DNA of 64,000 nt from NCBI GenBank assembly GCA_965237985.1, contig OZ250161.1, positions 104,078 to 168,077 of the forward strand. Direction: 5' to 3'. Below the pieces are notes generated by a model. The model saw nothing but the letters and a program-made list of their open reading frames with translations, did not search any database and was not told the origin of the DNA. Each line of letters opens with the position of its first letter. Positions within the stretch are counted from its first letter, which is position 1. The position numbers were made by a program, and so were the translations under genes. Shown piece by piece: positions 972 through 27,630 of this stretch. This DNA comes from Candidatus Oxydemutatoraceae bacterium (GTDB lineage: Bacteria > Pseudomonadota > Gammaproteobacteria > Poriferisulfidales > Oxydemutatoraceae).

Positions 972-1093
972 AGTTTTACTTCATTAAATCATTAGGAGTA
1001 ATGTCGAGAGCATCAGCGGTTTTTTTAACCGTATCAATTAAACCTTGTGATAGTGGTGTTTTGTTTCTTACCCACAAAATGATGAAACGGGTA

Positions 1094-1185
1094 TGGCGGA
1101 GAGAGAGGGATTCGAACCCTCGACACGGAATTCCCCGTATACACGCTTTCCAGGCGTGCGCCTTAGACCGCTCGGCCATCTCTCC
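1094..1185 (-). tRNA. tRNA-Ser (anticodon GGA), class II with long variable arm, CCA encoded
   Basis: The reverse complement GGAGAGATGGCCGAGCGGTCTAAGGCGCACGCCTGGAAAGCGTG...GGTTCGAATCCCTCTCTCTCCGCCA folds as a cloverleaf. The anticodon loop CTGGAAA gives anticodon GGA. Confidence 0.9.
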
Positions 1186-1783
1186 AGAAACCCTTCTGTT
1201 TTTTAGTCCAGGTCGGCGGTCGCCGAGTGAAATCATTCTCGACTTGCGCCCTGCACAACGCACAGCACTGGCGACGGCTTCCGGCACACCCAACAACTGC
1301 CAGTCTTGCCGTGGTCAGGATGGGCTATGGAACAGAAGCCACTATAATTGTAGCAATCTGTCCATGCATTTTCCAAGCAGTGTTGCGGGTAGGCAATACA
1401 ATCCCATTTGGAGAAAAAGCTGGGTTTTCGCTGTGCCGTTGGAAGATTTTCGTGATTCGAGGTTCGTCCGTACTTTGAGACAGGTGTGTATGGATAACGC
1501 GGTTGCGCGTCATGTCAAAATCGGTGTTTGGTTATATCCTTGGGGATGCTCTGCTAGGTGCAGCTTAACTGGAGGGATTCCACTTTGCAAGGGGATGAAA
1601 GGGGTTGTAGTAACGGTATGTGTGGCTGCTTTTGGCACCCCGGAATTCTGATTTGTTGCATTCTGGGTAAAAAAGTTGGTAAAACCAGCTTAAGATTTTT
1701 GAGAAGTATCCAGAAATTTATTAGAAGTTTATTGGTAGTTTGTGAGAACTCCTGTTATTGTAGAATAAGCATCAGGAGTGTTT

Positions 1784-2851: not shown

Positions 2852-2865
2852 CAATATTTAGGAAA

Positions 2866-3604: not shown

Positions 3605-3623
3605 TACTTTTTTACTAATTTTT

Positions 3624-5525
3624 TCAATACGCACTATTCGCTCCCGCCAGCACGGCCCTTGCCCAACAGGAAACGGAACACCCGGCGGCTTTTGCTGCTA
3701 CGGCGTATTGGTCGGCCTGTGCCTGGGTGAGGCGAAATCCGATGAGTGTTGTACTCCCTCTGCTCCGGGCGTCCGGCGGCGGGATGTTTTCGGGCGGGTT
3801 GTTCAGTATGTCTCTGGCCCACATCGCCACGCTCTGGCCGCTGGCTTTCGCCCGGACAGTGGCGGCGGTGTGAACGGCATTACTCACACGCAGAGCAAAC
3901 ATTATGCTCTTTAGAGGTTGCTTGACCGTGGCAGGCTTTGCTTTGACTTTGGGCCGTTGAACTTCCTTTATTTTCGACTCGGCTGGGGCTGTTGCTGGTG
4001 CCGGGGAAGGTGCGCCACCAAGCAACACCGCCCTTGCCCAGTACGTTATGGAATGCCCTGCCGCTTCTGCGGCAAGGGCGTATTCTTCGGCTTGGGCAGG
4101 GGTAATGCGAAAGCCGATCATTTTCCGGCGATTTTCACGTCTGGTGTTTACCGGGGGAAGCTGCTCCGGCGGGAAGTTCAGCATCGCGCTGGCCCAAATG
4201 CCGACACTCAGCCCCTCGGCCTCCGCCTTGGCGGCGGCGGCGTATTCTTCCTCGCTGACACGTATGGAAAACATACTGCGTGTGCTTGGTTCATAGGGGT
4301 CTTTTGGCGGTTTTAAGTTATGGCTATTTTGCCTCGGTGTTGCCGATAGCTTTTTCTTCGGCTTGCTTTTACCTTGCAGCAAATCGCGCAAGGTCGCGCC
4401 GATCCGCTCGGCGGCGACTTCTGTGGCTTTATCCGATACGTGGGTATAACGCAAGGTCATGCTGGTTTTGCGATGCCCCAACAGTTTTGAGACCATTGGG
4501 ATTGTTACCCCCTTGATTACGGCGTGGCTGGCGAAGGTATGGCGCAGGTCATGGACTCGCACGTCCTCAATTCCCGCCCTTTCGCGCATGTCTCGCCAAT
4601 ACTGATCTATGTTGTTTCGGGGCAGTTTCGGGTCTTTAATCCACGGAAACACCCACCGGGTGCCGTTTCTTGGTTGGCGTTCCAGAATGCTGATGGCCTT
4701 CTTGCTCAAATAAACTTCTCGCTGCCCGGTTTTGGTGTCGGGTATCTTGATAATGCCGTCACGAATCATCGACCATTCAAGCAAGGTGATCTCCCGATGA
4801 CGGCACCCGGTCAAAAGGATCAAGCGGACAATATCCGCGCCCTGCCTGTAGTCCCGGCTTTCCTTTTCGGCATTTTTCAGAACCTTTGATAACCGGGTGA
4901 TTTCCTCTGACGACAGAAAGCGGTTAAGAATTTTCTTCGGGTTCTTGCGAATACCCTTGGCCGGGTTTTCGCTCAAATGGCCGCAAACGACTGCAAACTC
5001 CAGAATGGACAGAAGAACCTCCAGTGCGCGATTAGCCCCGCCGGGATAGGTCTTGCTGTAGATGTCGAACCACTCGGCAACCCCCGGCTTGTTGATCTCG
5101 TCCAGATACATCTTGCCGAACTCTGGCAACAAGCGGGAATTGATATAGCTACGGGTCGATCTCTGGCCCGTGGGTTTGAGCAAGACAAATTTCTGCTCAT
5201 GCCACGCACCAAAAATAAACTCGTCAAAGCGTGGCGCGTTCGATATGCGCTCGGCCTGTGTCGGCTCTCCCATCTGCAAGCTGGTCAGCGTATCAACGCA
5301 AGCCTGACGGGCCTCGGCCTCCGACATAACCGGGAACTTTCCCAGCGTTACCTTGTGGATTTTATCGCGTACCAATCCATGCAGGATAAAAGCCTTGTAC
5401 CCGGTCGGCCTGACGCGAAGGCCACACCCGAAAAGCTGATTGTCCCATGCAACGTATTCCTTGCCCTCAACGGCAAGCTGGCGCACACGACTGTCCGTGA
5501 GTTTTAATTTCAATTTGCTTTTCAT
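3624..5525 (-). CDS. int: P4-type tyrosine integrase (DUF4102 arm-binding N-domain plus catalytic core) fused to four C-terminal ribbon-helix-helix (MobC/NikA-like) repeats
   Basis: The catalytic region carries HDLRHTFAS...LGH...Y. The C-terminal 230 aa hold four copies of a motif of the form h-x-[FL]R[VIL][ST]-x7-A-x-A-x-G-x-S[VI]-x2-W-x-R-x2-[LM]. Confidence 0.85.
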   Translation of the reverse strand: MKSKLKLKLTDSRVRQLAVEGKEYVAWDNQLFGCGLRVRPTGYKAFILHGLVRDKIHKVTLGKFPVMSEAEARQACVDTLTSLQMGEPTQAERISNAPRFDEFIFGAWHEQKFVLLKPTGQRSTRSYINSRLLPEFGKMYLDEINKPGVAEWFDIYSKTYPGGANRALEVLLSILEFAVVCGHLSENPAKGIRKNPKKILNRFLSSEEITRLSKVLKNAEKESRDYRQGADIVRLILLTGCRHREITLLEWSMIRDGIIKIPDTKTGQREVYLSKKAISILERQPRNGTRWVFPWIKDPKLPRNNIDQYWRDMRERAGIEDVRVHDLRHTFASHAVIKGVTIPMVSKLLGHRKTSMTLRYTHVSDKATEVAAERIGATLRDLLQGKSKPKKKLSATPRQNSHNLKPPKDPYEPSTRSMFSIRVSEEEYAAAAKAEAEGLSVGIWASAMLNFPPEQLPPVNTRRENRRKMIGFRITPAQAEEYALAAEAAGHSITYWARAVLLGGAPSPAPATAPAESKIKEVQRPKVKAKPATVKQPLKSIMFALRVSNAVHTAATVRAKASGQSVAMWARDILNNPPENIPPPDARSRGSTTLIGFRLTQAQADQYAVAAKAAGCSVSCWARAVLAGANSAY

Positions 5526-6671
5526 GATGACAGCACTCCCCCGATGGCAGAGGACACGGTCCGCGCCGTGTATTGGATATCGTCGTTGGCAAGGTGGGAA
5601 TATTTCAGGGTGATTTCCGGGTCGGCATGTCCCAGCAATCTCCCGATGGTGATAATATGCTCGCCATGCCCAAGGGCCACGCTGGCGTAAGTGTGGCGCA
5701 AGTCATGCATTCGAACGTTTGCCAGCCCCGCTTGTTCGCGGATGGCGCGCCAATTGTAGTCGATATAACTTTGAGTGATGGTTCCCGCTTTCCCGCGTAA
5801 GGCCGGGAAAACATACAGGGACGTTCTGGGGATTGCTTCCAGAACGTCACGGGCGGCGGATGAGAGGAAAATGGTTTTCGCACCCGTCTTGCTGTCGGGC
5901 AAATACAGGTTGCCGTGCCTGCAGCTTGGCCACTGCAACCCCATCGCTTCCCCTTTCCGGCAACCCGTCAAAATAACAAATTTCAGAAAGGACACCACAA
6001 GCGGTGATGTTGCGCGATTGCTTTCCAAAACGCCCCCAAGCGTTGCCAGTTCATCCGCCGACAAGAACCGCTCCTTTGCCGCCACCTTATAACGGGGGGT
6101 GCCTTTGCACGGGTTGGAATTATCAGGCCGATAACCGTAAATTTCGGCTTGCTGCATCAGGACGGAAAGAATAGGCAGGGTTCGGTTTGCCATGCCGGGC
6201 CGGTTGCCAAGCGAGGCGAACCAGCGGGTAATATGGCTCTTGTCGCTCTCGCCAATTTTCATCCCTTTGAAAAATGGCAAAATGTGGTGATCGTAGGTGT
6301 TGCGGCTGGAACGAAACATGGAATCTTTCCAGTGCCGTCTGTAACGGTCAAAGAATATCTCGCCGACTTCCTCAAACAACGCCTGTTTAAGCTCCGGCGG
6401 TCTGGGGGTCGCTCTGCTTTGCAATACTCCGCAAGGCCAGTGCGCGTGCCTTCGCCTCCGTCAACTTTGTAGTTGAACCAAGGCTATTCCACTTTCGCCG
6501 CCCCCTCACCTGAGCCTGAACGAAGTACGTTTTGCCCCCGCTAGGCGAAACCCGAACGCCAAACCCGGTAAGCTCACCATCGCGAACACTGTAAAATTTT
6601 TCTTGGGGTTTAAGGCTATCAATCAGTTTTTGGGTTGATTTTTGCTTCTCCATGAGTTTTTCCTTTTGCAT
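5522..6671 (-). pseudogene. Second P4-type integrase, split by a frameshift between the arm-binding domain ORF (6387..6671) and the catalytic ORF (5522..6424)
   Basis: ORF 6387..6671 is a DUF4102-like N-domain (YSVRDGELTGFGVRVSPSGGKTYF). ORF 5522..6424 is the catalytic core (HDLRHTYAS). They overlap by 38 nt in different frames near a C5 run. Confidence 0.6.
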
Positions 6672-6965
6672 TTAATCCATGTTTGAATTTGCTGCAAAGT
6701 GGGAAAACAAGAGCTCACCCATTGCGCAACGCTACACAGAACGCAAGGTATAACCCTTTGATTTTGATGAATTTAACGCGCCACTATTTTTACTTTTAAC
6801 TACGAAGTAGTGACGGGTGTGGGCTTTATGAAGCCGGTGCCGGAGATTCCAGATTTCCAACGCACCCGGCTGACGTTATCCGTTTTCATTTCCCTGACAG
6901 TCCTCCCTGTTTCGGGTTGCTGATGTTTTTTATCCGGGGCTTATTAAGCTAAACTGCACACCTAC

Positions 6966-7667
6966 ATGAGTCAAGGCATGACAGTTTACGGTCTGGTGAC
7001 CGAATCCGGGGCAGTGGTGCAGTTTGTGCTGCTGATCCTGTTGATTGCTTCGGTTTTAAGCTGGGCGTTCATTTTTGAGAAGTGGCGGGAATTAAAAGTG
7101 GCTCGTGCCGAAGCGGATCAATTTGAAGGCAAATTCTGGTCTGGGTCTAACCTGTTCGAGCTTTACGAGACCTATTCTGCTCGTGATGACAATTTTGGAA
7201 TGGGCGAGATTTTTGTTTCCGGGTTCGCTGAATTTCAGCGTTTGCGCGAAAGTGACGCGTTTGCTGAAAAAGTATTGAGTGACGGGATTACGCGCGCTAT
7301 GAGAGTGTCCATTTCGCGCCATGCGGAGCAATTGGAAAAACGTTTGAATTTCCTTGCGACCGTGGGTTCTGTGTCCCCATACGTGGGTTTGTTTGGGACA
7401 GTGTGGGGCATCATGCATGCTTTCATTTCGCTTAGCGATGTGCGTCAGGCGACCTTGGCGCTGGTGGCGCCGGGCATCGCCGAGGCTTTGGTGGCGACTG
7501 CCATGGGTCTCGTGGCCGCCATCCCGGCCGTTGTTGCGTATAACCGTTATCGTGAAACTACCGAGCGGCTGATTACCCGTTACGACAACTTCGTTGAGGA
7601 ATTTTTTGGGATTCTCATCACTCAGGCGAAACCGGCTGGTCAAACAGGCGAAGCTGCCGAAAATTGA
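6966..7667 (+). CDS. tolQ: Tol-Pal system protein TolQ
   Basis: Three-TMS MotA/TolQ/ExbB family (GLFGTVWGIMHAF), followed by tolR, tolA and tolB. Confidence 0.9.
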   Translation: MSQGMTVYGLVTESGAVVQFVLLILLIASVLSWAFIFEKWRELKVARAEADQFEGKFWSGSNLFELYETYSARDDNFGMGEIFVSGFAEFQRLRESDAFAEKVLSDGITRAMRVSISRHAEQLEKRLNFLATVGSVSPYVGLFGTVWGIMHAFISLSDVRQATLALVAPGIAEALVATAMGLVAAIPAVVAYNRYRETTERLITRYDNFVEEFFGILITQAKPAGQTGEAAEN

Positions 7668-7670
7668 ACA

Positions 7671-8132
7671 ATGCCTCGTGTCCCAAAACGTCCTCTGATT
7701 TCGGAAATCAATGTCGTGCCCTACATCGACGTTATGCTGGTGTTGCTGGTTATTTTCATGATTACGGTTCCTTTGATTCAGCAGGGGGTAGAAATCAACT
7801 TGCCTGAAGTAGAGGGGAAGCCGGTTACCGATGCGGATGGCGCGCCGGTTACTGATCCGTTAATTGTTACGGTGGAACGCGATGGGAAACTTTGGGTCAA
7901 TCGCCAGGGTGTTGGGGAAACGGCCATGGACTTGGAGGGGATTGCGGACGCTTTGCAGCAGCTGTTGCCGGAAAATCATTACGAGGTCTATTTGCGGGCG
8001 GATGAACATGCCAGATATGGTGATGTGGTGAAGGTTCTGGTCACCATTCAGGAACTCTTTCCCGAGGGCGTGGCAGGAGGACAGACTGTCGGCCTGATAA
8101 CAGCCCCGCCGCCTGATGAGGAAAACTTTTGA
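7671..8132 (+). CDS. tolR: Tol-Pal system protein TolR
   Basis: ExbD/TolR family. N-terminus MPRVPKRPLISEINVVPYIDVMLVLLVIFMIT. Confidence 0.9.
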   Translation: MPRVPKRPLISEINVVPYIDVMLVLLVIFMITVPLIQQGVEINLPEVEGKPVTDADGAPVTDPLIVTVERDGKLWVNRQGVGETAMDLEGIADALQQLLPENHYEVYLRADEHARYGDVVKVLVTIQELFPEGVAGGQTVGLITAPPPDEENF

Positions 8133-9132
8133 AGTGAACCTGGAAAGGCTTTGGCTCCGGGGTGGTGAAACGCGGAAAAACAAGTCTTTATTTTCTCTTG
8201 TCCTTGTTGCATCCTTGGCATTGCATGCATTGGTCATTGGTGTCCTTGCCATGGTTATTACCGCCCCGGGGACAAGTGCCACTCCAACCCGTGCTCCCCT
8301 GTCGGGAGTCGTTCAGGCAACGGCGGTCAGTGCGGCGCAGGTTGAACGCTGGCGCGAGCGGAAAGTAGCAGAAAAACGCAGGTTGCAAGAGGAGAAAATG
8401 ACTGAACAGCGGGAGAAAGAACGGGTTGCCCGCAAGCAGCGGGAGGCACAGGAAGCAAAGCGTGCCGCAAAAAGAGAAGCGGATATCATGGTGCGCAAGC
8501 AGGAAGTGATGGAGGCCAAAAGGAGATCAGAAGCGGCTGAGGCGCGTAGAAAGGCGGAAGAAGCCAAGGCGAAAGCGGCGGCTGAGGCGCGTAGAAAGGC
8601 GGAAGAGGCCAAGGCGAAAGCGGCGGCTGAGGTACGTAGAAAGGCGGAAGAGGCCAAGGCGAAAGCGGCGGCTGAGGTACGTAGAAAGGCGGAAGAAGCC
8701 AAAGTGAAAGCGGCGGCTGAGGTACGTAGAAAGGCGGAAGAAGCCAAGGTGAAAGCGGCGGCTGAGGTGCGCAGAAAGGCGGAAGAAGCCAAGGCGAAAG
8801 CGGCGGTAGAGGCACAGCTTCGTGCGGAAGCCGAGGCGCGCCGCAGCCGTGAATTGGTGTTGCTGGTCAACAAATATGTACGCGATATCGAAAATAGGAT
8901 TCGGTCAGTGTGGAGCGTCCCGCCCGGTGGCATTGGTCATGGTGACTGCACCATTCGTTTGGAGCAGGACAGAAGCGGCATGGTAAGAAGCGTGCAGATC
9001 CAAAGCTGCGAGGGCAACCAGTTATATCGCCAATCGCTTGAAGAGGCAGTGTTGAAAGCAGCTCCTTTGCCACTGCCGGGTGCTGCGGAGATCTTTGATG
9101 CGGAGGTCGAAGTCACATTCAGACTTCAGTAG
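8116..9132 (+). CDS. tolA: Tol-Pal system protein TolA with a 6x 15-aa Ala/Lys/Glu-rich tandem repeat
   Basis: N-terminal TM anchor, long AEARRKAEEAKAKAA repeat helix, C-terminal TolA domain. Position between tolR and tolB. Confidence 0.8.
   Translation: MRKTFEVNLERLWLRGGETRKNKSLFSLVLVASLALHALVIGVLAMVITAPGTSATPTRAPLSGVVQATAVSAAQVERWRERKVAEKRRLQEEKMTEQREKERVARKQREAQEAKRAAKREADIMVRKQEVMEAKRRSEAAEARRKAEEAKAKAAAEARRKAEEAKAKAAAEVRRKAEEAKAKAAAEVRRKAEEAKVKAAAEVRRKAEEAKVKAAAEVRRKAEEAKAKAAVEAQLRAEAEARRSRELVLLVNKYVRDIENRIRSVWSVPPGGIGHGDCTIRLEQDRSGMVRSVQIQSCEGNQLYRQSLEEAVLKAAPLPLPGAAEIFDAEVEVTFRLQ
8536..8805 (+). repeat. 45-bp tandem repeat x6 inside tolA (encodes AE[AV]RRKAEEAK[AV]KAA)
   Basis: Direct read of the sequence. 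Period is 45 bp with a few point differences. Confidence 0.85.
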
Positions 9133-9138
9133 GCATGA

Positions 9139-10536
9139 ATGTTGCCAGGAATTTCAGCCAGAGTGTTGCCGGAGCTGCGAATGGACTTTAGGAATGGTAT
9201 TTTTCCCGTGCTCAGGGGCAAGGGTCGCGGCTTCCTGTTTTTCTTTCTGGCTGCGTGGTTTTTTCTGTTGCTTACGCCTCCGTCGTCGGCGGTGTTGAAA
9301 GTCGATGTCAGGGAAGGGCAGCGCGGTAAAATTCCCATCGTCGTCTTGCCTTTTCCTGGAGAAGAAGAGGGCCCAAGAAATTACAGTGGCATCATTGCTT
9401 CGGATCTGGAGCTTACCGGCCAGTTTGCGGTACGCGGTCTGGATGTCCGGGATCTGTCCGTGACAGTTGGGCAAGAAAAAACAGATTACGCCGGGTGGCT
9501 CAAACGGGGAATTGAAAAGTTTGTTACCGGTGAAGTGATACGCAGTCCGGCGACCCACCTGCCAGAGTTGCGATTTGAATTACATGACCCAATCAGGGGA
9601 CAACGTGTGTTTGTTAAATCATTCAGTATTCGTGCCCTTCCGAAACGTCTGGATCATGTCAGCCGCCTGGCACATACGGCCAGCAACGCGCTGTACAAAA
9701 GCCTCACCGGCATGCCTGGTATTTTTACTTCGCAATTGGCTTTTGTCAGTTCGGAGAAGACCGGTTTGAAAAGTCGTATTTACAATCTTTGCCTCAGCGA
9801 TGTTGATGGTCAAAACATTTTCGTTTTGTTTTCCTCGAAAACATTGCTGATGTCTCCTGTCTGGTCGCCAAGCGGACAGGAAGTCGCTTTCGTGTCTTTT
9901 GCCAGTGGCCAGCCGGAACTGCTCATCAAGCCCTTGAATAAACGCCCGATAAGAACTTTGGCACCATTGACCGGCGCTGCTTTCTCCCCCGCCTGGTCGC
10001 GCGATGGTAACCACCTGGCTTATACTGGTCTGCGGAATGGGAATTCTGAAATCTATGTTCTTGATTTGTCTACGAAACAGGTGCAGCGAGTCACCAATAA
10101 TCTGGCAATAGACACGGAACCGGCGTGGGCACCGGATGGTACGCTTTATTTTACTTCGGATCGCAGTGGCAACCCGCAGCTGTACAAAACCGCCTGGTTG
10201 GATCCGCACCCGCAACGGGTGACTTTTTCGGGTTCGTATAACTCTGATGCGGCGGTATCTCCCGATGGGTCCCGCTTGGCTTTCCTCGGTGTGCGTGACG
10301 GAAAGTATTCTATTGTGATCAGGCACTTGAGTGAAAAGTCGGAAATCATTTTAAGCACCGGGCAGCTTGACGAAAGCCCACGGTTTCTCGGCAATGGTTT
10401 TTTGCTTGGCTATCTTACGAGCGAGGGTTCAGAAAGCATTCTTGGTGTCGCAACAGTGGACGGCCTTTTTGGCAGGAAGCTCAGATTGCGAAAAAGTAAT
10501 GTCCGGGCAATTTCGTGGTCCCCTTTAAGACGATGA
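9139..10536 (+). CDS. tolB: Tol-Pal system beta-propeller protein TolB
   Basis: TolB N-domain followed by WD40-like repeats (SPAWSRDGNHLAYT, EPAWAPDG). The true start may be Met 9181. Confidence 0.9.
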   Translation: MLPGISARVLPELRMDFRNGIFPVLRGKGRGFLFFFLAAWFFLLLTPPSSAVLKVDVREGQRGKIPIVVLPFPGEEEGPRNYSGIIASDLELTGQFAVRGLDVRDLSVTVGQEKTDYAGWLKRGIEKFVTGEVIRSPATHLPELRFELHDPIRGQRVFVKSFSIRALPKRLDHVSRLAHTASNALYKSLTGMPGIFTSQLAFVSSEKTGLKSRIYNLCLSDVDGQNIFVLFSSKTLLMSPVWSPSGQEVAFVSFASGQPELLIKPLNKRPIRTLAPLTGAAFSPAWSRDGNHLAYTGLRNGNSEIYVLDLSTKQVQRVTNNLAIDTEPAWAPDGTLYFTSDRSGNPQLYKTAWLDPHPQRVTFSGSYNSDAAVSPDGSRLAFLGVRDGKYSIVIRHLSEKSEIILSTGQLDESPRFLGNGFLLGYLTSEGSESILGVATVDGLFGRKLRLRKSNVRAISWSPLRR

Positions 10537-14307: not shown

Positions 14308-14570
14308 CCGCTTTCCCTGCGTTGTTCCGGGGGTTTCAAAAGCTCAAAGCATTTTTGGGAAACGCCTCCTGAACTGGTCTTGATGAGCCGTATAATAACC
14401 GCGTCCTTCGGACGGACCTGGGTGCTTCTTTATGGGTTGGTATGCCGTGCCGCACGGAAAAGGGGCAGTTATTTTTTCGTGAGACTCAGTTGATGGTTTA
14501 TGCTTGTGCAAATTGCTTGCCGACAGGTTTTCAGCGCACCGCCGGGCAGTTTCCGAACGATGGGATTTCA

Positions 14571-16568
14571 CTTTGAAAACAGGAGCATGAAGCCATGAGG
14601 CCTCCTGCACGTTTGTTGCTTGAAGACGGCACTGTTTTTTGTGGTTGCCAAGTGGGTGGGGACCAACGAGGGGATGGCGGTCGGCGAAGTGGTGTTCAAC
14701 ACGGCGATGACTGGTTACCGGGGGATATTGACCGCTCGTCTTGCCGACAGCAGATTATTACCTTGACCTGCCCGCATGTCGGCAACGTCGGGACAAACGG
14801 TGAAGATTCTGAATCGTCCAATTGAAAACAGGAGCATGAAGCCATGAGGCCTCCTGCACGTTTGTTGCTTGAAGACGGCACTGTCTTTTGTGGTCGCCAG
14901 GTGGGGACCGACGAGGGGATGCGGTCGGCGAAGTGGTGTTCAACATGGCGATGACTGGTTACCAGGAGATATTGACCGATCCGTCTTACCGACAGCAGAT
15001 TATTACCTTGACCTGCCCGCATGTCGGCAACGTCGGGACAAACGGTGAAGATTCTGAATCGTCCAATTGAAAACAGGAGCATGAAGCCATGAGGCCTCCT
15101 GCACGTTTGTTGCTTGAAGACGGCACTGTCTTTTGTGGTCGCCAAGTGGGGACCGACGAGGGGATGGCGGTCGGCGAAGTGGTGTTCAACACGGCGATGA
15201 CTGGTTACCGGGGGATATTGACCGATCCGTCTTGCCGACAGCAGATTATTACCTTGACCTGCCCGTATGTCGGAAACGTCGGGACAAACGGTGAAGATTC
15301 TGAATCGTCCAATTGAAAACAGGAGCATGAAGCCATGAGGCCTCCTGCACGTTTGTTGCTTGAAGACGGCACTGTCTTTTGTGGTCGCCAAGTGGGGACC
15401 GACGAGGGGATGCGGTCGGCAAGTGGTGTTCAACACGGCGATGACTGGTTACCGGGGGATATTGACCGATCCGTCTTACCGGCAGCAGATTATTACCTTG
15501 ACCTGCCCGCATGTCGGCAACGTCGGGACAAACGGTGAAGATTCTGAATCGTCCAATTGAAAACAGGAGCATGAAGCCATGAGGCCTCCTGCACGTTTGT
15601 TGCTTGAAGACGGCACTGTCTTTTGTGATCGCCAAGTGGGTGGGGACCAACGAGGGGACGGCGGTCGGCGAAGTGGTGTTCAACACGGCGATGACTGGTT
15701 ACCGGGGGATATTGACCGATCCGTCTTGCCGACAGCAGATTATTACCTTGACCTGCCCGTATGTCGGCAACGTCGGGACAAACGGTGAAGATTCTGAATC
15801 GTCCAATTGAAAACAGGAGCATGAAGCCATGAGGCCTCCTGCACGTTTGTTGCTTGAAGACGGCACTGTCTTTTGTGGTCGCCAAGTGGGGACCGACGAG
15901 GGGATGGCGGTCGGCGAAGTGGTGTTCAACATGGCGATGACTGGTTACCGGGGGATATTGACCGATCCGTCTTACCGGCAGCAGATTATTACCTTGACCT
16001 GCCCGCATGTCGGCAACGTCGGGACAAACGGTGAAGATTCTGAATCGTCCAATTGAAAACAGGAGCATGAAGCCATGAGGCCTCCTGCACGTTTGTTGCT
16101 TGAAGACGGCACTGTCTTTTGTGGTCGCCAGGTGGGGACCGACGAGGGGATGCGGTCGGCGAAGTGGTGTTCAACATGGCGATGACTGGTTACCAGGAGA
16201 TATTGACCGATCCGTCTTACCGACAGCAGATTATTACCTTGACCTGCCCGCATGTCGGCAACGTCGGGACAAACGGTGAAGATTCTGAATCGTCCAACTG
16301 AAAACAGGAGCATGAAGCCATGAGGCCTCCTGCACGTTTGTTGCTTGAAGACGGCACTGTTTTTTGTGGTTGCCAAGTGGGTGGGGACCAACGAGGGGAT
16401 GGCGGTCGGCGAAGTGGTGTTCAACACGGCGATGACTGGTTACCGGGGGATATTGACCGCTCGTCTTGCCGACAGCAGATTATTACCTTGACCTGCCCGC
16501 ATGTCGGCAACGTCGGGACAAACGGTGAAGATTCTGAATCGTCCAATTGAAAACAGGAGCATGAAGCC
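14571..16568 (+). repeat. Tandem array of eight partial copies of the carA 5' end (about 246 bp each; 5'-UTR with SD plus first 74 codons), head-to-tail directly upstream of intact carA
   Basis: ATGs at 14595, 14844, 15089, 15335, 15579, 15829, 16079 and 16320 each follow GAAAACAGGAGCATGAAGCC. Each copy ends ...GAAGATTCTGAATCGTCCAATTGA. The ninth ATG at 16569 is the intact gene. Confidence 0.9.
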
Positions 16569-17702
16569 ATGAGGCCTCCTGCACGTTTGTTGCTTGAAGA
16601 CGGCACTGTCTTTTGTGGTCGCCAAGTGGGGGCCGAGGGGATGGCGGTCGGCGAAGTGGTGTTCAACACGGCGATGACTGGTTACCAGGAGATATTGACC
16701 GATCCGTCTTACCGACAGCAGATTATTACCTTGACCTGCCCGCATGTCGGCAACGTTGGGACAAACGGTGAAGATTCTGAATCATCCACAGTATTTGCTT
16801 CTGGTCTGGTGTTGCGGGATGTTCCGCTCATGGAACAGAACTGGCGTAGCGAATGTTCTCTTCCTGACTTTTTGAAACTGCGGGGAGTGGTCGCGATTTG
16901 TGATGTGGATACCCGGCGCCTGACGCGACATTTACGTGATCAGGGTGCGAAAAACGGGGTTTTGTACAGCACAGACTATAGCGATGAAGAAGCAAAGAAA
17001 GCTCTGTTGGCATTTCGTGGACTGTCCGGCACTGATCTGGCAGCGGAAGTCAGCACCTCCCACGCCTACGACTGGGATGAAAGTGTGTGGTGCCCTGGAG
17101 GCGGGTTTGCCACCAGGAACGACGGTGATTTCTACGTGGTGGCATATGATTTTGGAATCAAGCGGACGATTTTGAGAATCCTGACCAGCCTGAATTGCAA
17201 AGTGCGTGTTGTGCCGGCTAAAACCCCGGTGGGTGAGGTTTTGTCCTTGCGACCTGATGGTGTGTTTTTGTCCAATGGCCCGGGAGATCCGGAGCCATGT
17301 TTTTACGCGATCGAGTCAGTGCGTAAGATCCTGGATGCAGGCATCCCTTTGTTCGGGATATGTTTGGGGCATCAGCTGCTGTCTTTGGCGTGTGGTGCGC
17401 GCACTGTGAAGATGAAATTTGGCCATCATGGTGCCAACCATCCGGTTGAAGAACTGGCGACCGGAAAAGTCTTGATTACTTCCCAGAACCACGGTTTTTG
17501 TGTTGACGAGAGTTTTTTGCCTTCCTGTTTGTCCGCGACCCACCGCTCCCTTTTTGACCAGAGCCTGCAGGGGGTTCATCACACCGGGAAACCGGCCTTC
17601 GGGTTCCAGGGACACCCCGAAGCCAGCCCCGGCCCGCACGATCTGGTACCGTTTTTCTCCCACTTCATGGATTTGATGAAAGATTGTGCCAAAAAGAACT
17701 GA
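16569..17702 (+). CDS. carA: Carbamoyl-phosphate synthase small subunit CarA
   Basis: N-terminus [21 protein letters not shown]...[20 protein letters not shown]. GATase triad region GICLGHQ. It overlaps the carB start. Confidence 0.9.
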
Positions 17703-20700
17703 TTTAGAAAGCATTCTAATTATTGGTGCCGGTCCGATTGTCATCGGTCAGGCGTGCGAATTTGATTATTCCGGAACGCAGGCATGCAGGGCGATTCGGG
17801 AAGAAGGTTACCGTGTCGTGTTGGTGAATTCCAACCCGGCGACCATCATGACCGATCCTGGCGAAGCCGACAGCACGTACGTGGAACCGCTCGAATGGCA
17901 ATCGGTTGCCAGAATCATTGAAAAAGAAAAGCCTTCGGCGGTGTTGTCGACGATGGGCGGGCAGACGGCATTGAATTGTGTCCTGGATCTGAATCGCCAT
18001 GGGGTGCTTTCTGAATTTGGAGTGGAAGTCATCGGTGCGCGTTCAGAGGTCATAAAAATTGCTGAGGACCGCGGGCTGTTTTGCAGGGCAATGAGCGAAA
18101 TCGGATTACTGACCGCTCGCTCCATGTTGGTGCGTGATTTTGCAGAAGCACAGGAAGCCCTCCGCCATTTTGCCTTTCCGCTGATGTTGCGTCCTTCGTT
18201 CACTCTGGGAGGTAGTGGCAGTAGTGTGGTCAGGAACCAGGAGGAATTTTCTTCCGCCGTCAGACGCGGGCTGGCTTTGTCGCCAAGCAGCGAGGTGTTG
18301 ATCGAGGAATCGCTCCTGGGTTGGGGCGAATATGAAATGGAAGCAGTCCGCGACCAGCGGGATAACTGCATCATCGTATGTTCGATTGAAAATGTGGACC
18401 CGATGGGGGTGCACACAGGGGATTCCATTACCGTTGCACCGGCATTGACCCTGACGGACAAGGAATACCAGCTGATGCGCGACGCCACGGTCTCTGTTTT
18501 GCGCAAAGTGGGTGTGGATACTGGTGGTTCCAACGTGCAGTTTGCGGTCCATCCAGAAACCGGTCGGCAAGTCGTCGTGGAGATGAATCCGCGGGTGTCG
18601 CGTTCTTCTGCGCTGGCTTCCAAAGCGACTGGTTTTCCGATCGCGAAAGTAGCGGCGAAACTGGCGGTGGGTTACACGCTGGATGAATTGGAAAATACCA
18701 TCAGCGGCCAGCGCATGCCGGCTTCTTTTGAGCCGACTCTGGATTATGTTGTGACCAAGGTGCCACGTTTCACGTTTGAGAAATTCTCGCAAACCGTGGA
18801 TTGTTTGAACACACAAATGAAATCGGTCGGTGAAGTTCTCGCCATGGGTCGCTCTTTCAAGGAATCTTTGCAAAAAGCGCTTTGCGCTCTGGAAACCGGG
18901 GTGGCAGGCCTGGACGAATGCACGCCTCCTGCTCACGAAAACGCAAGAAACTGGATCAGGAAAGAGTTGTCCATTTGCAGTTCCAGACGTTTGTGGCAGG
19001 TCGCACAGGCATTTCGAATCGGGCTTACCGTGGATGAGGTGTTTGTGCTGACGCAGATATCGCGTTGGTTTTTATGGCAAATCAGCGAAATTGTGGATAT
19101 GGAAAGGGATCTGGCAGGAGAATCTCTGGGCAAAATGAGCCGGGAGCATTTGTTTGCCTGCAAACAGTCCGGTTTTTCCGATGCCCGTCTTGCGAAACTG
19201 CTTGATGTGTCTGAAGAATCAGTCAGAAAGCGGCGCACGGAGCTTGAGATCAGGCCGGTTTTCAAGCGTGTGGATAGCTGCGCTGCTGAATTTGCAACAA
19301 ACACCTGCTACATGTACTCGACCTATGAAGAAGAATGCGAGGCAGTTCCAGACAACAGTGCGACAAAAATCATGATTTTAGGCAGTGGCCCGAATCGAAT
19401 CGGGCAGGGCATTGAATTTGATTACTGTTGCGTGCACGCGGGACTGGCTTTGCGGGAAATGGGCTATCAAACACTGATGGTGAATTGCAATCCGGAAACG
19501 GTATCTACGGATTACGACATTTCTGACCGTTTGTATTTTGAACCGCTGACTATGGAGCATGTCAGTGAAATTCTTCATGTGGAAAAACCTTGGGGCGTGG
19601 TGGTTCAATATGGTGGACTGACGCCTCTGAAGCTTGCCCGGCCGCTTGAACGTGCCGGGGTGCGTGTGCTTGGGACTTCGCCAGATTCAATCGACCTGGC
19701 CGAAGACCGTGAACGCTTCAAGGCCTTGCTCACCAGATTGGGGTTGCGTCAGCCATCCAGCGCCATGGTGAACACTGCCGAGGATGCGTTTGCTTTCGCC
19801 AGTATCCAGGGTTACCCCTTGGTAGTACGGCCTTCTTACGTCCTCGGTGGCAGAGCCATGGAGATTGTGCATGACTGGGAGGAGCTTGAAGCTTATATGC
19901 GACGGGAAAGGCATGTACAGACTGGAAAAGCGGTTTTGCTGGACAGCTTTCTTTGTGATGCCACAGAAATTGATGTGGATGCCATGTGCGATGGAGAAGA
20001 GGTGTTAATCGGCGGGATCATGCAGCATATCGAACAGGCCGGTATTCATTCCGGCGACTCCGCCTGCTCGCTGCCGCCCCATTCCCTATCGGAACGGGTG
20101 CTGGCGGAAATTACCCGCCAGGTTAAAGTGCTTGGCAAAGCGTTGGCAGTGAAAGGTTTGATGAACATGCAATGTGCAGTGCGTGATGAGGAGATTTACA
20201 TATTGGAAGTCAATCCGCGTGCCTCACGTACAGTGCCATTTGTTTCCAAGGTGACCGGGTTGCCCCTTGTGAAAATTGCCGCCCGCTGCATGATGGGACA
20301 AAGTCTTGCTTCGCAGGGAGTGAAGGCCAGACCCGTCAAAGACTTTTTTGCAGTGAAAGAAGTAGTATTCCCTTTTCTCAAATTTCCCGGTGTCGATGCA
20401 CTGATGGGGCCGGAAATGAAGTCTACCGGTGAGGTGATGGGCCTCGGGAGAAGCTTTGGCGAGGCTTTTTTGAAATCTCAGATTGCTGTCGGGAACCGTA
20501 TGCCAAGGTCGGGAACGGTGCTGTTAAGCGTACAGGATGCAGACAAGGCAGGGGCCGTTGAGTTGGCTCGCCTGTTCCTCGATCTGGGGCTGTCCCTGAT
20601 GGCGACCAAGGGCACGGCACGAGCTTTGCATGCGGCTGCTATGGAATGCGAGCATGTTTTCAAAGTGAAAGAGGGGAAACGGCCGCATGTCGTGGACCGA

Positions 20701-20904
20701 ATCAAGCGAAAGGAGGTGGTTTTGATCGTGAATACCACGGAAGGGCGACAGGCTGTCGCGGATTCTTTTTCTATTCGCCGCGAAGCCTTGGTGAATGAAA
20801 TCTGCTACTCCACCACTTTGGCGGGAGCTTTTGCACTGGTGAAAGCCCTGCATTGTCAGCCGGAACTGTTGTGCAGCCTGCAGGAGCTGCACAATCTCAA
20901 TTAA
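17686..20904 (+). CDS. carB: Carbamoyl-phosphate synthase large subunit CarB
   Basis: 1072 aa. N-terminus [30 protein letters not shown] and duplicated ATP-grasp halves. Confidence 0.95.
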
Positions 20905-21758: not shown

Positions 21759-23630
21759 TCACGATTTCCCCTTTGGTGATTCTACTTCTTTCCCTTCGCA
21801 AAAGTGCACGAATCCTTTAACGTTGCCCACGACCCACTCAAACTCTTCCTTCGTAAGTTCTTGGCCGTCTTGACTGAATTTTTTCCTGTATACAGGTTCA
21901 CTGGCTTTTTTGTGCATTAGAGTGAGAAGGTTTTTACCTTCTCGGTTGTACATGGGTATTCCCGTTTTCCGGTTTACAGGCAATTGTTTGATGACCCTGT
22001 CGACACAATGCATTAGTTTTGCACTGGGTACGCGCCTGCAGCAGCTTTCGGCAACATCTGGGATGCCCAATATGCCGGTTTCTTTAAAATCAGTCGACCA
22101 CTTTGCATTTGTTGATGATTTCTCCATGTGCTCCAGATCAAACAGTGTGTCTCTGTTTGGTGCACGTCCATTTTTCAGTGTGAGGTAGCTAAGACAGTGC
22201 TTTGTATTTGCACTCACTTTCGTGCCCTCAATATACCCTGCCAATCTATACCCTTCCAATCTTTCGCCAATTCTTTTTTCCAAGGTGGCTGTCAGTTGCG
22301 CATGTAAGCGATTCTGTCCTGATGAAGAGATTCCGGGCGCAAAAGCGAGCGGTTCCTCTGCTGTCCTGATATCAAAAAATTCTGTGACATGATAAGCCTG
22401 CATTTTATGAGTTGCCCAGTAATCTCTACGTTGAATCCATGTTTCGTTATCAGAAATTGTCCGTGTCTTCCCGGACACCGCAACAAGTGTTTTCGTTATT
22501 TCTATTTTGGGGCGTTCTGCCCCTACACTTTTCCCTATTATTGCTGCGTCGGTTTTGCCGGCATCGGGCTTCGTTGCGCTCGTGTCTGGTGTATTTTTTC
22601 CAGTTATAGGCCGATTTCTGCCGCTTCCGGGATCTTTTGCCACTTTGATACGACTACTCTCATCTTGTGGCGTAGGCCCACTTTTGGTGGTACTGGATTT
22701 ACTGGATTGTGGTGTTCCTGCTCTGCTCGTGTTCGGCGTTTCTTTTTTTTTGTTCCTTGTAGGCTGACTGTTGCCTTTTTTCGCAGGGGGCTTCAGATTT
22801 TGTTTCGGGTTTTTTGTTAGGGCATTGCTGGCTGCCGTTCCTCGTGTTAAGTCCCTCCGGGTTACTCGTTTTTTTTCTGTCACCGGCTGACTGTTGCCGG
22901 GATCTTGTGTCGTACCTGTGAGGTGACTTTGCTCTTGTGTTGCAACCGTAGATGTCAGGTTGGTGTGTTCCTCAGTGGGTTTTTTGTCTGTCACCGGCTG
23001 ACTGTTGCCGGGATCTTGTGTCGTACCTGTGAGGTGACTTTGCTCTTGTGTTGCAACCGTAGATGTCAGGTTGGTGTGTTCCTCAGTGGGTTTTTTGTCT
23101 GTCACCGGCTGACTGTTGCCGGGATCTTGTGTCGTACCTGTGAGGTGACTTTGCTCTTGTGTTGCAGCCGTAGATGTCAGCTTGGTGTGTTCCTCAGTGG
23201 ATTCTTTGTCTGTTGCCGGGTCTTGAAAGGTGCTGGGCGTGATGGCTTCAGTGTTAGTTTTGGGAAGTTCAGTGCCCGGGGTGTTCTGGTTGCCTCCCGT
23301 ATCGGGTGTGGCTCTGCTGCTGGCAAGTCTTTGCGATTCCTCATGGATGTAACGGTTAAACTCCCTCCTGTTCTGCAAGGTTTTTTCTTGTTCTGTGGAG
23401 ATCTTGAATTCCTCATTTTCACTACCAAGAGCTGCAGCCAGTATATTCCTGCGGCTCTGCAGCTCTTGCTTGCGATAATTTTCACTGAACTTGTAGCGAA
23501 AAATATGCACTACCCAGCCTGAGAATGAGTTCTTGAGAACACATTGCCCGTTACCATTGTCTGTTTGTACCCCCAGTCTGCCCAGCTGACTTCTGGCAGC
23601 TCTCTGCAAGATTCCATCACCAATTTCCAT
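21759..23630 (-). CDS. Hypothetical protein, 623 aa, with central Thr/Gln/Ser-rich low-complexity region (3 x 37-aa repeats) and a conserved-looking C-terminal domain
   Basis: Long open frame. Repeat TDKKPTEEHTNLTSTVATQEQSHLTGTTQDPGNSQPV x3. No recognisable family. Confidence 0.55.
   Translation of the reverse strand: MEIGDGILQRAARSQLGRLGVQTDNGNGQCVLKNSFSGWVVHIFRYKFSENYRKQELQSRRNILAAALGSENEEFKISTEQEKTLQNRREFNRYIHEESQRLASSRATPDTGGNQNTPGTELPKTNTEAITPSTFQDPATDKESTEEHTKLTSTAATQEQSHLTGTTQDPGNSQPVTDKKPTEEHTNLTSTVATQEQSHLTGTTQDPGNSQPVTDKKPTEEHTNLTSTVATQEQSHLTGTTQDPGNSQPVTEKKRVTRRDLTRGTAASNALTKNPKQNLKPPAKKGNSQPTRNKKKETPNTSRAGTPQSSKSSTTKSGPTPQDESSRIKVAKDPGSGRNRPITGKNTPDTSATKPDAGKTDAAIIGKSVGAERPKIEITKTLVAVSGKTRTISDNETWIQRRDYWATHKMQAYHVTEFFDIRTAEEPLAFAPGISSSGQNRLHAQLTATLEKRIGERLEGYRLAGYIEGTKVSANTKHCLSYLTLKNGRAPNRDTLFDLEHMEKSSTNAKWSTDFKETGILGIPDVAESCCRRVPSAKLMHCVDRVIKQLPVNRKTGIPMYNREGKNLLTLMHKKASEPVYRKKFSQDGQELTKEEFEWVVGNVKGFVHFCEGKEVESPKGKS
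22880..23215. repeat. 111-bp tandem repeat x3 inside the 21759..23630 ORF
   Basis: Direct read of the sequence. Period is about 110-111 bp. Confidence 0.8.
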
Positions 23631-24367: not shown

Positions 24368-24541
24368 TGGGGTTTCAACGGCCCCGGCATCATTTCTTGA
24401 CCCCTCACTGCCTTTGTGCTCTGGTGATGGTTTTGTGTTTCCTCAGTCAATGGGAGAATAGACGGAAACAAAGTGCGACCACACGTTCACTTGTAAATGC
24501 AACATCCAGCAGGTAGCACTGGCATTCGGACATCGGCAGAT

Positions 24542-25234
24542 GGGGCTGATTTGTGGCTACGGTCAGTGGTTTCCGTCCTGTTTCAGTCGTCCGGATTTTT
24601 TAGTTTTTTTGCAGTGCGTAAATGGTTGCGAGTGCCTGGCGAGGAGACAGTTCGTTTGGGTCCAGTTTTTTCAGAGCTTTCAATGCCGGGTGGTGGTGGT
24701 CAAATGCGAGTTTCGGTTGCTGCGGGGAGGGTTTTTGGACACACTGCATGGCTTCCAGCTCCTCCAGCTTCTGGGGCTGATTTGTGGCTACGGTCAGTGG
24801 TTTCCGTCCTGTTTCAGTCGTCCGGATTTTTTAGTTTTTTTGCAGTGCGTAAATGGTTGCGAGTGCCTGGCGAGGAGACAGTTCGTTTGGGTCCAGTTTT
24901 TTCAGAGCTTTCAATGCCGGGTGGTGGTGGTCAAATGCGAGTTTCGGTTGCTGCGGGGAGGGTTTTTGGACACACTGCATGGCTTCCAGCTCCTCCAGCT
25001 TCTGGGGCTGATCTGTGGCTACGGTCAGTGGTTTCCGTCCTGTTTCAGTCGTCCGGATTTTTTAGTTTTTTTTGCAGTGCGTAAATGGTTGCGAGTGCCT
25101 GGCGAGGAGACAGTTCGTTTGGGTCCAGTTTTTTCAGAGCTTTCAATGCCGGGTGGTGGTGGTCAAATGCGAGTTTCGGTTGCTGCGGGGAGGGTTTTTG
25201 TTTTTGGGCACACTGCATGGCTTCCAGCTCCTCC
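24542..25234. repeat. 231-bp unit x3 comprising the last ~63 codons of mutS plus ~42 bp of 3' flank; two extra copies lie downstream of the mutS stop
   Basis: Units start at 24542, 24773 and 25004. The third overlaps the genuine mutS 3' end (stop 25045). Confidence 0.85.
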
Positions 25235-27630
25235 AGCTTCGCAAGCGCCTGTTTCAGGGTGGCTTCCGGAAGACCTGCCAGGCGGGCGACCTGGATGCCG
25301 TGGCTGCGGCTGGTGCCTCCGACTTTTACTTTGTGCAAAAACACGACTTCTCCGGCGTGCTCTATTGCGTCCATGTGGACATTTTGCACTTGTGGGTATT
25401 TTTCGCAGAGCGTTGTCAATTCGAAATAGTGTGTGGCAAACAATGTCAGTGAGTGGTTCCGGCTTGCCAGTTCTGCCGCACATGCCCAGGCCAGGCTGAG
25501 TCCGTCGAAGGTACTTGTTCCCCTTCCGATTTCATCCATCAGTACCAGGCTGTCCGGCCCGGCGTTATTCAAAATGTTGGCTGATTCCGTCATTTCCACC
25601 ATGAATGTAGAACGTCCCGAGGCGATGTCATCTGCCGCGCCAATCCTCGTGTAAATGCAATCCAGGGGGCCGATGGTGGCTTCTGTAGCAGGCACCCAGG
25701 CGCCGATATGTGCCAGTAAGGCAATTTGAGCTGTTTGGCGCATGTAGGTGGATTTTCCGCCCATATTCGGTCCGGTGATTACCAGCATGCGTTGTTTCTC
25801 ATCCAGATCGAGGTCGTTTTCCACGAAAATGTTTTCCTGGCTGAGTTCTACGACGGGATGTCGTCCGCCCTTGATGTGTATCCCCCGGGAGGCAGCCAGT
25901 GTCGGTCGGCAGTACTTTCGTTCTTCTGCGCATTTGGCAAGGGTGGTAATGACATCTGTCGCAGCCAGAGCGGCTGATGTTGCCTGCAGGCGACTGATGA
26001 AGGGGCGGAAATAAAGCAGGATTTCCCGGAACAGTTTTTTCTCTTTGGCAAGTGCTTGATCGCGGGCGGCAAGTACACGGCCTTCCAGAGATTTCAATTC
26101 GGCAATGGAGTAACGTTCTGAGTGTTTTAGCGTTTGCATTCTTCGGTAGTCCTCCGGAGCTTTCTCAGCAACTGCGCGTGGCATCTCTATGTAATAGCCG
26201 TGCACCCGGTTGTAAGCGACGCGCAAATTATTGACTCCTGTCCTGCGCCGTTCCCGATTTTCAATTTCTATCAAATGTCCGGAAACGTTTTTATGCAGTC
26301 CGCGAAAATAGTCCAATTCCGGGTCGTATTTGGAGCGAATGACTCCGCCATCACGTATGGTGGCAGGGGGAGTGTCCACAATTGCCTGTGCAAGATGTTG
26401 TGCGAGTTCCGGTTCGGGGTGCAGGTTGGCATCAAGATTTTTGGCCAGCGGGCTTGTCAGAGTGCCCAGCGTAGTTTTCAAAACCGGCACCAGCTCCAGA
26501 GTTTCCCGAATGCCGTTCAGATCTCGGGGTTTTGCTGTTTCCAGAACCACGCGTGCCAGCATGCGTTCCAGGTCATTACTGCGTCCCAGTATGGCGCGTA
26601 GATTGTGCAGGGTTTCCTTATGTACCAGTTCGCCGATCAGTTCCTGGCGTTTTTGCAGGGCTTCGCGTTGCCGTAAGGGACTGGCAAACCAGCGCCGCAA
26701 ACAGCGCGCTCCCATGCTGGTAACGGTGTGATCGTGAATGCCAACGAGCGTTCGCTTGTGATCGCCTGAAGTCGATTTTTCTATTTCCAGGCAACGGCGA
26801 CTTGTGGCGCTGAGCTGCACAAAATCTTCATCGTTTTCCACGATGAGGCTACGCAAATGTGGCAACTCTGATTTCCTGGTGTCCAGCACGTATTGCAAAA
26901 GCGCCCCGGCAGCTGCAACAGCCGTGTCTTTGTTTATGCAACCGAATCCTTCCAGACCCAGCACCTCAAGCTGCCGGCATAATAGCCTGCGTGCATTTCT
27001 TATCAGAAAAACTGATGCCGGCAAGCTTTGCGGCTGGTGCTTTTCCAAAGTGAAAGTGCGGTTTTCACTGACCAGAAGTTCAGCCGGATGCAGGCGGTCT
27101 ATTTCATCATCCAGTGCGGCGTGGCTGGCAGTCTGGCGGATAGTCAAACGACCGGAACTGAGTTCAAGCGTGGCGATGCCGAATACCGGCTGTTTTGTTT
27201 TTTCATCGCTATGTACGGCCATGACCAGATTGTCTCGTTGCTCATCCAGCAGTGTGTCTTCAACGACGGTTCCCGGAGTGACCACGCGCACCACTTTGCG
27301 CTCCACAGGCCCGCGGCCTTGTACCGGGTCGCCGACCTGGTCGCAGATTGCCACAGTCTTTCCCAGGCGAACCAGTTTGGCGAGATAGCTTTCCACCGCA
27401 TGTACTGGCACACCAGCCATGGGCACTTTCTTATTGCCGTAACGGCCGCGGGAAGTCAAAGTAATATCAAGGAGCTTTGCTGCTTTTTCGGCATCGTGAA
27501 AAAACAGTTCATAAAAATCCCCCATATGATAGAAAAGCAGGGTGTCCGGGTATTCAGACTTTATGCGCAGGTACTGCTGCATCACGGGGGTGTGTTCGCT
27601 GATCATGAGTGTGCTGCTCTCCAGGGGCAT
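25045..27630 (-). CDS. mutS: DNA mismatch repair protein MutS
   Basis: 861 aa. N-terminus [28 protein letters not shown]. Walker [10 protein letters not shown]. Confidence 0.95.

Follow-up and report, generated by a model that had tools for sequence, protein, structure and literature searches.

The tandem array described here appears to resemble most closely, among described cases, the tandem repeats of Ehrlichia ruminantium. It is found at carA in a 64,000-nucleotide stretch of DNA from a Candidatus Oxydemutatoraceae bacterium (contig OZ250161.1, positions 104,078 to 168,077; hereafter the window, in whose coordinates positions are given unless a relative is named). The array consists of nine direct, head-to-tail units copied from the 5' end of carA, only the last of which runs on into an intact carA-carB. 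Collins et al. reportedly found that the E. ruminantium repeats duplicate and truncate genes. As far as the account in PMC10710844 goes, in which a 2005 PNAS paper and Frutos et al. (2006, J Bacteriol) are cited, E. ruminantium is like the present case in combining a small genome with many arrays of roughly 100- to 500-bp units that differ between close relatives, and in having arrays in or beside intergenic DNA, with truncated gene fragments left behind. However, the present host is a gammaproteobacterium whose high-copy arrays consist almost wholly of translated 5' ends of housekeeping genes, and each copy carries its own ribosome-binding site (RBS) and start codon between the promoter and the gene.

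Within the Gammaproteobacteria, Portiera, a symbiont of Bemisia and Singhiella whiteflies, shows genome instability with expanded, repeat-rich intergenic regions, which has been ascribed to the loss of genes for replication and repair, dnaQ among them (PMC7821994). The likeness lies in the gammaproteobacterial lineage and in repeats and long spacers that build up in some clades but not in their sister clades. In contrast to the host studied here, Portiera has a tiny, AT-rich genome with mostly microsatellites and rearrangements. Further, mutS is intact in the window, a dnaQ-like RNase_T exonuclease open reading frame (ORF) is present, and recA and recX are found in more distant relatives.

Silent cassette arrays that serve segmental gene conversion are found at Borrelia vls and Neisseria pilS. 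The carA array shares with them tandem partial copies beside an expressed gene, variable segments between conserved ones and mosaic combinations of variants. It differs in that the target is a cytoplasmic enzyme, the copies include an RBS and start codon, the variants are frameshifted or damaging, and conversion has left no clear trace in the expressed carA copy. Tandem amplification of trpEG on Buchnera plasmids, accompanied by trpEG pseudogene repeats, was reportedly described by Lai, Baumann and Moran in 1996. That system likewise involves tandem copies of a biosynthetic gene in a symbiont, some of them decayed; whereas whole genes are amplified there and dosage is changed, the carA units are 75-codon 5' fragments that leave functional dosage unchanged.

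In this study, we found a repeat unit homologous to a gene end, absence of the array from relatives, no sign of protein-level constraint on the extra copies and recombination between units, as would be expected of tandem amplification. The carA array is probably the product of a recent, lineage-specific tandem amplification that is decaying neutrally and has left eight carA gene-start pseudo-fragments upstream of the gene.

Structure of the carA array

Tandem Repeats Finder (TRF) called the array at 14573-16788 with a period of 246 bp, 9.0 copies and 95% matching, and unit borders were set by sequence reading and alignment of all nine units. The units are 242 to 250 bp long and lie on the forward strand, as do all carA features described below. 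Each starts 22 nt 5' of an ATG (TTGAAAACAGGAGCATGAAGCC-ATG) and contains an AGGAG RBS followed by about 75 carA codons; the AGGAG and ATG are intact and the first 13 codons are invariant in every unit. The junctions that close units 1 to 8 create an in-frame TGA (TCC AAT TGA) immediately 5' of the next AGGAG. Unit 9 (16547-16788, at least 242 bp) is the true carA 5' end, and leads into the intact carA (16569-17702), which encodes a 377-aa protein with CPSase_sm_chain and GATase Pfam domains. The carA stop is overlapped by carB (17686-20904, 1072 aa), and greA then follows. A TATAAT box at 14391-14396, about 180 nt upstream of the array, belongs to the likely carAB promoter. The surrounding sequence (CCGTATAATAACCGC) is conserved in the relative L081, and the box was not flagged by a consensus scan.

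The eight upstream units, termed decoys here, differ in reading frame. Unit 1 (14573-14821, 249 bp) carries a 4-nt GTGG duplication and a 1-nt deletion and encodes a 76-aa ORF with a recoded middle, as does unit 8 (16298-16546, 249 bp, 76 aa). Unit 2 (14822-15066, 245 bp) has a 1-nt G deletion that leaves an ORF of only 36 aa, and retains the ancestral CAGGAG (YQE); unit 7 (16053-16297, 245 bp, 36 aa) has the same sequence. Units 3 (15067-15312, 246 bp) and 6 (15807-16052, 246 bp) are in frame and encode 75-aa ORFs, with YQE-to-YRG, Y-to-C and H-to-Y changes in unit 3. Two separate 1-nt G deletions give unit 4 (15313-15556, 244 bp) a 67-aa ORF in an alternative frame, and an uncompensated GTGG duplication gives unit 5 (15557-15806, 250 bp) an ORF of 69 aa.

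These differences agree in part with an earlier note on this DNA. Copies 2 and 7 are identical, as it had claimed, by both the unit alignment and the distance matrix, and copies 1 and 8, also called identical, are so except for the first base (T in unit 1; C, the outgroup state, in unit 8). The insertion with a compensating deletion that it reported in units 1 and 8 was found as described: the GTGG duplication produces GTGGGTGGGG at 14652-14661 in unit 1, 15636 in unit 5 and 16377-16386 in unit 8, and about 80 nt later in units 1 and 8 CGATCCGTC becomes CGCTCGTC (14732-14740 and 16457-16465). The net change of +3 nt keeps the frame open for 76 codons, and the recoded middle matches exactly the one quoted in that note. 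The statement that copies 4 and 5 carry only the first shift holds for unit 5, which has the insertion alone, but not for unit 4, which has no insertion and reaches the same alternative frame through its two single-G deletions, one of them common to units 2 and 7.

The decoy mini-ORFs at 14595-14825, 15089-15316, 15579-15788 and 15829-16056 are already present as separate predicted proteins (P0001-P0004) in a public protein collection, three of them with a CPSase_sm_chain Pfam match. "CarA-like" ORFs of 36 to 76 aa such as these should be read in protein databases as pseudo-fragments.

Absence of the array from relatives

The closest CarA (P0007, 87% identical) is encoded in L081, where carA is single-copy at the syntenic locus and has no array. 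Gene order in L081 is as in the window (tolQRAB, ybgF, queE, queC, HIT, a divergent M23 peptidase gene, carA, carB, greA ... mutS), and carA starts 275 nt after the divergently transcribed M23 peptidase gene. A contig scan of 80 more distant carA loci, from relatives at most 64% identical, found no array, and none was present in 21 kb of L084 (66% CarA identity). The array-bearing species was a singleton, with no other contig or protein above 90% identity in the collections searched. Neither CarA nor the 76-aa mini-ORF had an exact match in a gene-position index, and the 21-nt unit-start pattern had none in JGI metagenome contigs.

Comparison with L081 also allowed the history of the units to be ordered. 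Unit 9 and L081 both read GAEGM, the ancestral state, while units 1 to 8 share a 3-nt insertion and read the derived GTDEGM. The sharing of this insertion by all eight decoys points to one founder pseudo-copy that had already diverged, and not to a gene that was copied again and again. At their 3' ends the decoys have TCGTCCAA, the outgroup state, and unit 9 has since changed to TCATCCAC, suggesting that the array is old enough for a few substitutions. Even so, the array is far younger than the 16-18% DNA divergence between the two species.

Decay of the decoy units

A total of 22 mutational events was counted among the units. The earlier note had placed the differences almost entirely in a segment of about 45 bp, a G-rich stretch that lies at 14641-14685 in unit 1 (GTGGTTGCCAAGTGGGTGGGGACCAACGAGGGGATGGCGGTCGGC). 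Indels do cluster there (4 of 5), but the 46-nt stretch holds only 10 of the 22 events, the remaining 12 extending to unit position 241. Ten events in this stretch exceeded the 4.1 expected (nominal binomial P = 0.004); since the stretch was picked after viewing, this value was discounted in favor of a scan statistic, which gave P = 0.09 for all units and 0.21 for the eight decoy units alone. The stretch is likely to be slippage-prone because it is G-rich and contains short direct repeats (GTGG-GTGG and CGA-CGA). No indel lies in a run of three or more identical bases, and two indels are common to units that otherwise differ; the indels are thus not base-calling noise, and miscalled homopolymers do not account for them. 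The 62 nt that follow the first base are invariant across all units (longest-gap P of about 0.035).

Transitions outnumbered transversions by 16:2 in the array, compared with 2.65:1 between the two species in carA and carB (P of about 0.09, a binomial estimate). Since the array ratio was not significantly above the species background, a special mutational process is unnecessary, and a deaminase or mismatch-repair-defect signature was rejected. The derived changes comprised roughly three A>G, three G>A, three C>T, one T>C and two transversions.

The frame is broken in four of the eight decoys, representing three independent haplotypes, and decoy-specific substitutions are about 10 nonsynonymous to 1 synonymous when polarized on the closest relative, although the counts are small. 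The conserved TGYQE has become TGYRG in six decoy units. Among the changes that only unit 9 shows inside the repeat, those at positions 214 and 241 are synonymous. Even in its intact form, the 75-aa mini-ORF spans only positions 1-67 of the 126-position carbamoyl-phosphate synthase (CPSase) small-chain domain. Six distinct decoy haplotypes comprise two with no indel, two with one and two with two; of the last two only one restores the frame, a proportion near the chance level. Since units 1 and 8 are copies of each other, the frame-restoring pair is one independent event. The alternative frame is open regardless, as unit 5 reaches 69 codons with no compensation. With a single independent compensating pair, broken frames and this substitution ratio, selection on the mini-ORFs, as had been suggested, is unsupported. 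Collectively, the units look like unconstrained pseudo-copies beside a constrained gene, and the +4/-1 "compensating frameshift" looks like the result of ordinary decay and reshuffling that needs no special explanation.

Exchange between units

Templated switching between sequence variants, as raised in the earlier note, was borne out to the extent that a four-gamete test indicated exchange of sequence among unit variants inside the array. Informative sites gave nine four-gamete incompatibilities and a minimum number of recombination events (Rm) of at least 2; for example, both states at position 200 are found with the insertion, and both states at position 126 with the G deletion at position 100. 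These incompatible variant combinations, together with the identical pairs, argue for unequal exchange or gene conversion inside the array, and the presence of two identical or near-identical unit pairs suggests that copying within it was recent.

The mirror order of unit types (A,B...B,A) is real, with unit 1 matching unit 8 and unit 2 matching unit 7. However, the rearrangement of higher order that this had been taken to suggest has no counterpart in the pairwise distance matrix, which showed no higher-order period and gave no support to repeats of two or three units (TRF periods 494 and 740). The order rests on two pairs, with a chance probability of 12/420 (0.029) that was computed post hoc.

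About 100 nt across each junction, comprising the last 38 nt of one unit and the first 63 nt of the next, are identical everywhere. A plausible source of this identity is feedback, in which the longest identical block would recombine most and stay homogenized while the diverged core would recombine less.

Searches for regulatory elements and diversification machinery

A consensus scan of the carA unit detected neither a terminator nor a promoter on the plus strand; a weak antisense match (9/12) simply recurs in each unit. The RNA fold of the unit was no better than that of shuffled sequence (z = 0.01), and Rfam detected only two tRNAs in the whole window, with no riboswitch or other family. 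Leader-peptide or attenuator control was rejected on the lack of a terminator-like site in the units, the fold score and the lack of an Rfam family. A Pfam scan of 30 large ORFs in the window found no reverse transcriptase (RT) domain. A diversity-generating retroelement was rejected on this result and on the observation that the substitutions are not adenine-specific.

Parallel arrays at other gene ends

The carA array is one of several in the window. On the reverse strand, an rpe 5' array at 40309-42993 has 11 units of 236 to 258 bp (about 239 bp) that are 88% alike. Its unit comprises 18 nt of upstream sequence and the first approximately 73 codons of rpe, and only the last unit enters the intact gene (40529-39849). 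The architecture is the same as that of the carA array, with discrete multi-nucleotide variant segments in mosaic combinations. Further 5' arrays are found at an IS481-like transposase gene (58553-60018, forward strand; three 487-bp copies, 99% alike) and at a thiD-like gene (33652-33943, reverse strand; two 146-bp copies). The IS481-like unit consists of the left end and a 114-aa helix-turn-helix (HTH)-encoding 5' ORF, and its last copy enters an integrase-core ORF (59860-60693). The thiD-like unit contains a promoter-like TTGCGC...TACAAT together with the beginning of a phosphomethylpyrimidine kinase gene (start codon and first 15 codons), and its downstream copy enters the gene. A 3' array is present at mutS (24541-25240, reverse strand; three 231-bp copies), each unit comprising the last approximately 195 nt of the gene and about 36 nt downstream. 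The first copy is the true 3' end of mutS, which is intact (27630-25045, 861 aa), and the array is absent from L081.

Relatives carry arrays of the same kind at different genes. L082, whose Rpe is 85% identical, has no rpe array; it has 11 copies of a 152-bp trpE start (10741-12345 in L082) and two trpC 3' arrays of five 280-bp copies (15903-17316 and 18325-19760), none of which has a counterpart at the same genes in the window. A founder-specific 33-nt deletion is common to the L082 trpE decoys, whose stop codon overlaps the start that follows (ATGA or TTGA). Both the rpe and trpE arrays mirror the carA pattern of a conserved 5' part and a mosaic variable core with indels. In the 69%-identical L083, arrays lie at 8545-9531, 6711-6974 and 7826-8022, with an M23 peptidase 3' end repeated 3.1 times (323 bp); the M23 repeats are called as extra 108-aa M23 ORFs. 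L081 has an array of at least 6.9 copies of a 196-bp unit (1-1364 in L081) that has no recognizable gene content, lies beside a tRNA and is absent from the window. Turnover of arrays was shown between species only. The parallel arrays at other genes suggest that the carA array is the product of a lineage-wide habit and not a carA-specific device.

Further observations were made on these arrays. In the rpe array, a 26-nt patch (AACCAGCACAATGTACCCATTCTATC) changes the encoded DNHYVPNL to NQHNVPIL and looks as though it had been copied from a diverged homologue of rpe; rpe of L082 was not the donor, and no donor was found. The Rpe matches P0127-P0129 were considered as array read-throughs and proved to be unrelated Rpe proteins with internal duplications. 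In 3' arrays, the outer boundary falls 8 to 36 nt past the stop.

Origin and persistence of the array

We propose that the first step, confined to this lineage, was a tandem duplication of 246 bp that reach from 22 nt 5' of the carA ATG to codon 75; the mechanism may have been slippage, followed by RecA-type unequal exchange. Amplification would then have given nine copies, with the most downstream serving as the working carA 5' end and the eight upstream pseudo-fragments left between the carAB promoter and the gene. The decoys would be decaying by transition-dominated point mutation and by slippage indels in the G-rich short-repeat stretch, while being reshuffled and partly homogenized by unequal exchange or gene conversion. 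The +4/-1 pair of units 1 and 8 would be a chance combination that was copied afterwards. More broadly, the lineage would tend to make and to tolerate tandem arrays of 100 to 500 bp, and a host-associated, small-population lifestyle would let these persist. Arrays would be found at gene ends because a short tandem duplication is harmless only when it overlaps a gene end or lies between genes, and those overlapping a gene end would survive because one intact gene copy remains.

Several observations weigh against this interpretation. The array is known from the assembly alone, and the species is a singleton in all collections searched. The mirror order of unit types is unlike the product of a simple unequal crossover. 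Three features are not predicted by pure neutrality. The first is the 62-nt invariant 5' part of every unit. The second is the outer boundary, which in each of the three high-copy arrays lies 0 to 22 nt before the start codon. The third is that the mini-ORFs end at, or adjacent to, the start that comes next: the carA TGA lies just 5' of the next AGGAG, and in the rpe and trpE arrays stop and start overlap as ATGA or TTGA. These three features would fit a selection filter against long untranslated RNA upstream of an essential gene, and also a bias of breakpoints toward translation starts; each of these we regard as improbable. In a combined form, the 5' ends of carA, rpe and trpE would have been specifically amplified into 9 to 11 decoy start units, anchored within about 20 nt of the start and with stops at the next start, through start-proximal duplication or as a selected translated buffer, and the conserved 5' block and variable core would be functional. 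This combined form seems rather doubtful.

The buffer component can be stated on its own as a translated leader array, in which decoy RBS-ATG-ORFs are kept to prevent Rho polarity over the 2-kb leader or to tune carAB, and in which open mini-ORFs and compensating frameshifts are favored. Preservation of AGGAG, ATG and 13 codons in every unit would suit such a leader, as would the composition of the units, which are almost wholly coding sequence, the position of the mini-ORF stops, which in the arrays of carA, rpe and trpE immediately precede or overlap the following start, and the fact that all high-copy arrays (at least nine copies) are 5' arrays. However, units 2 and 7 stop at codon 36 and leave about 115 nt untranslated, and truncated decoys make up 4 of 8 in the carA array and 4 of 10 in the rpe array (r1, r2, r8 and r10). 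Only a single independent compensating pair was found, and the carA units contain no attenuator-like structure among those sought. Further, each genome has its arrays at other genes and orthologous loci lack them, so that a conserved regulatory role is wanting. A translated leader is therefore an unlikely account of the array.

A dedicated process of start-proximal duplication, of which the arrays are the footprint, would involve a breakpoint hotspot at translation starts or copying via an mRNA 5' end. Relative to the start codon, the outer boundary is at -22 in carA, at about 0 to -18 in rpe and at -7 in trpE, within spacers of 67 to about 290 nt; the naive joint probability of about 3e-4 was obtained post hoc. 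The carA and rpe units are also similar in size (246 and 239 bp). However, these are three cases only. The unit starts match no recognizable promoter or transcription start, the conserved TATAAT being about 180 nt upstream, and no RT was detected among the 30 large window ORFs. Arrays of 3' ends and arrays that contain promoters also exist (mutS, trpC, M23, thiD and IS). Such a process is quite unlikely to have produced the array.

The possibility that the repeats, their order or the indels are errors of assembly or sequencing was also weighed. The source genome has been seen only once, about 100 nt are identical around every junction, and the identical pairs in mirror order (units 1 and 8, units 2 and 7) could stem from an incorrectly resolved repeat graph. 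However, errors do not produce 22 events with shared derived states and phylogenetic structure, the indels lie outside homopolymers, and independent assemblies of relatives from other samples carry such arrays at other genes. Names such as ctg28099_58x_c, given to contigs of the relatives, look like those of metaMDBG long-read assemblies, the reads of which would be expected to span 2.2 kb. We consider an artefact very unlikely.

Finally, templated diversification is scarcely credible. In such a system, as at vls and pilS, the decoys would serve as sources for segmental gene conversion into the expressed carA, whose 5' part would thereby be rewritten. An array of partial copies does lie directly upstream of the expressed copy, with discrete variant segments in mosaic combinations between conserved flanks, and there are four sites at which unit 9 agrees with some of the decoys and the others retain what the outgroup has. 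However, 4 outgroup matches in 18 substitutions are within chance expectation for transitions (about 2 expected, an estimate). CarA, the glutamine amidotransferase subunit of carbamoyl-phosphate synthase, is a housekeeping enzyme of the cytoplasm and no surface protein. The decoy variants are frameshifts and conserved-motif damage, which would harm unit 9 if they were converted into it. Unit 9 has no decoy-specific variant, its ancestral GAEGM is found in no decoy, and neither adenine-specific substitution nor an RT among the 30 large ORFs scanned was seen.

Under neutral decay of a tandem amplification, the carA array by itself is a decaying duplication, and what makes it interesting is the phenomenon across the clade, not the frameshift pair. 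At least four related genomes of about 2 Mb, in independent assemblies, carry many long-period gene-end arrays at different genes in each, including 9- to 11-copy arrays in which RBS-and-start fragments separate a promoter from an essential biosynthetic gene. This clade is a natural system for the birth, expansion, homogenization and tolerance of bacterial tandem duplications. It may also inform how much decoy translation an operon bears, and whether duplication breakpoints favor translation starts and stops.

Other features of the window

Shorter repeats occur inside coding sequences. A 623-aa ORF with no Pfam match (21759-23630, reverse strand) contains 3.1 copies of an in-frame 111-bp repeat at 22868-23213, and its homologues in L081 have 96-bp repeats instead (15811-15987 and 17921-18220 in L081). 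A TolA-like ORF (8116-9132) contains six copies of a 45-bp repeat.

Within positions 1-6900, about 5.5 kb beside a tRNA (1097-1185) is absent from L081. With two tyrosine integrases, a NikA-like domain and a Fic/DOC protein among its products, this segment is probably an integrated mobile element. The region at 47315-62236 has a lower GC content (0.45-0.48) and contains large ORFs (621 and 1143 aa) with no Pfam match. At least three paralogues of a family of unknown function that start MANEISGLFGKY... (56096, 57130 and 61214) flank the IS array.

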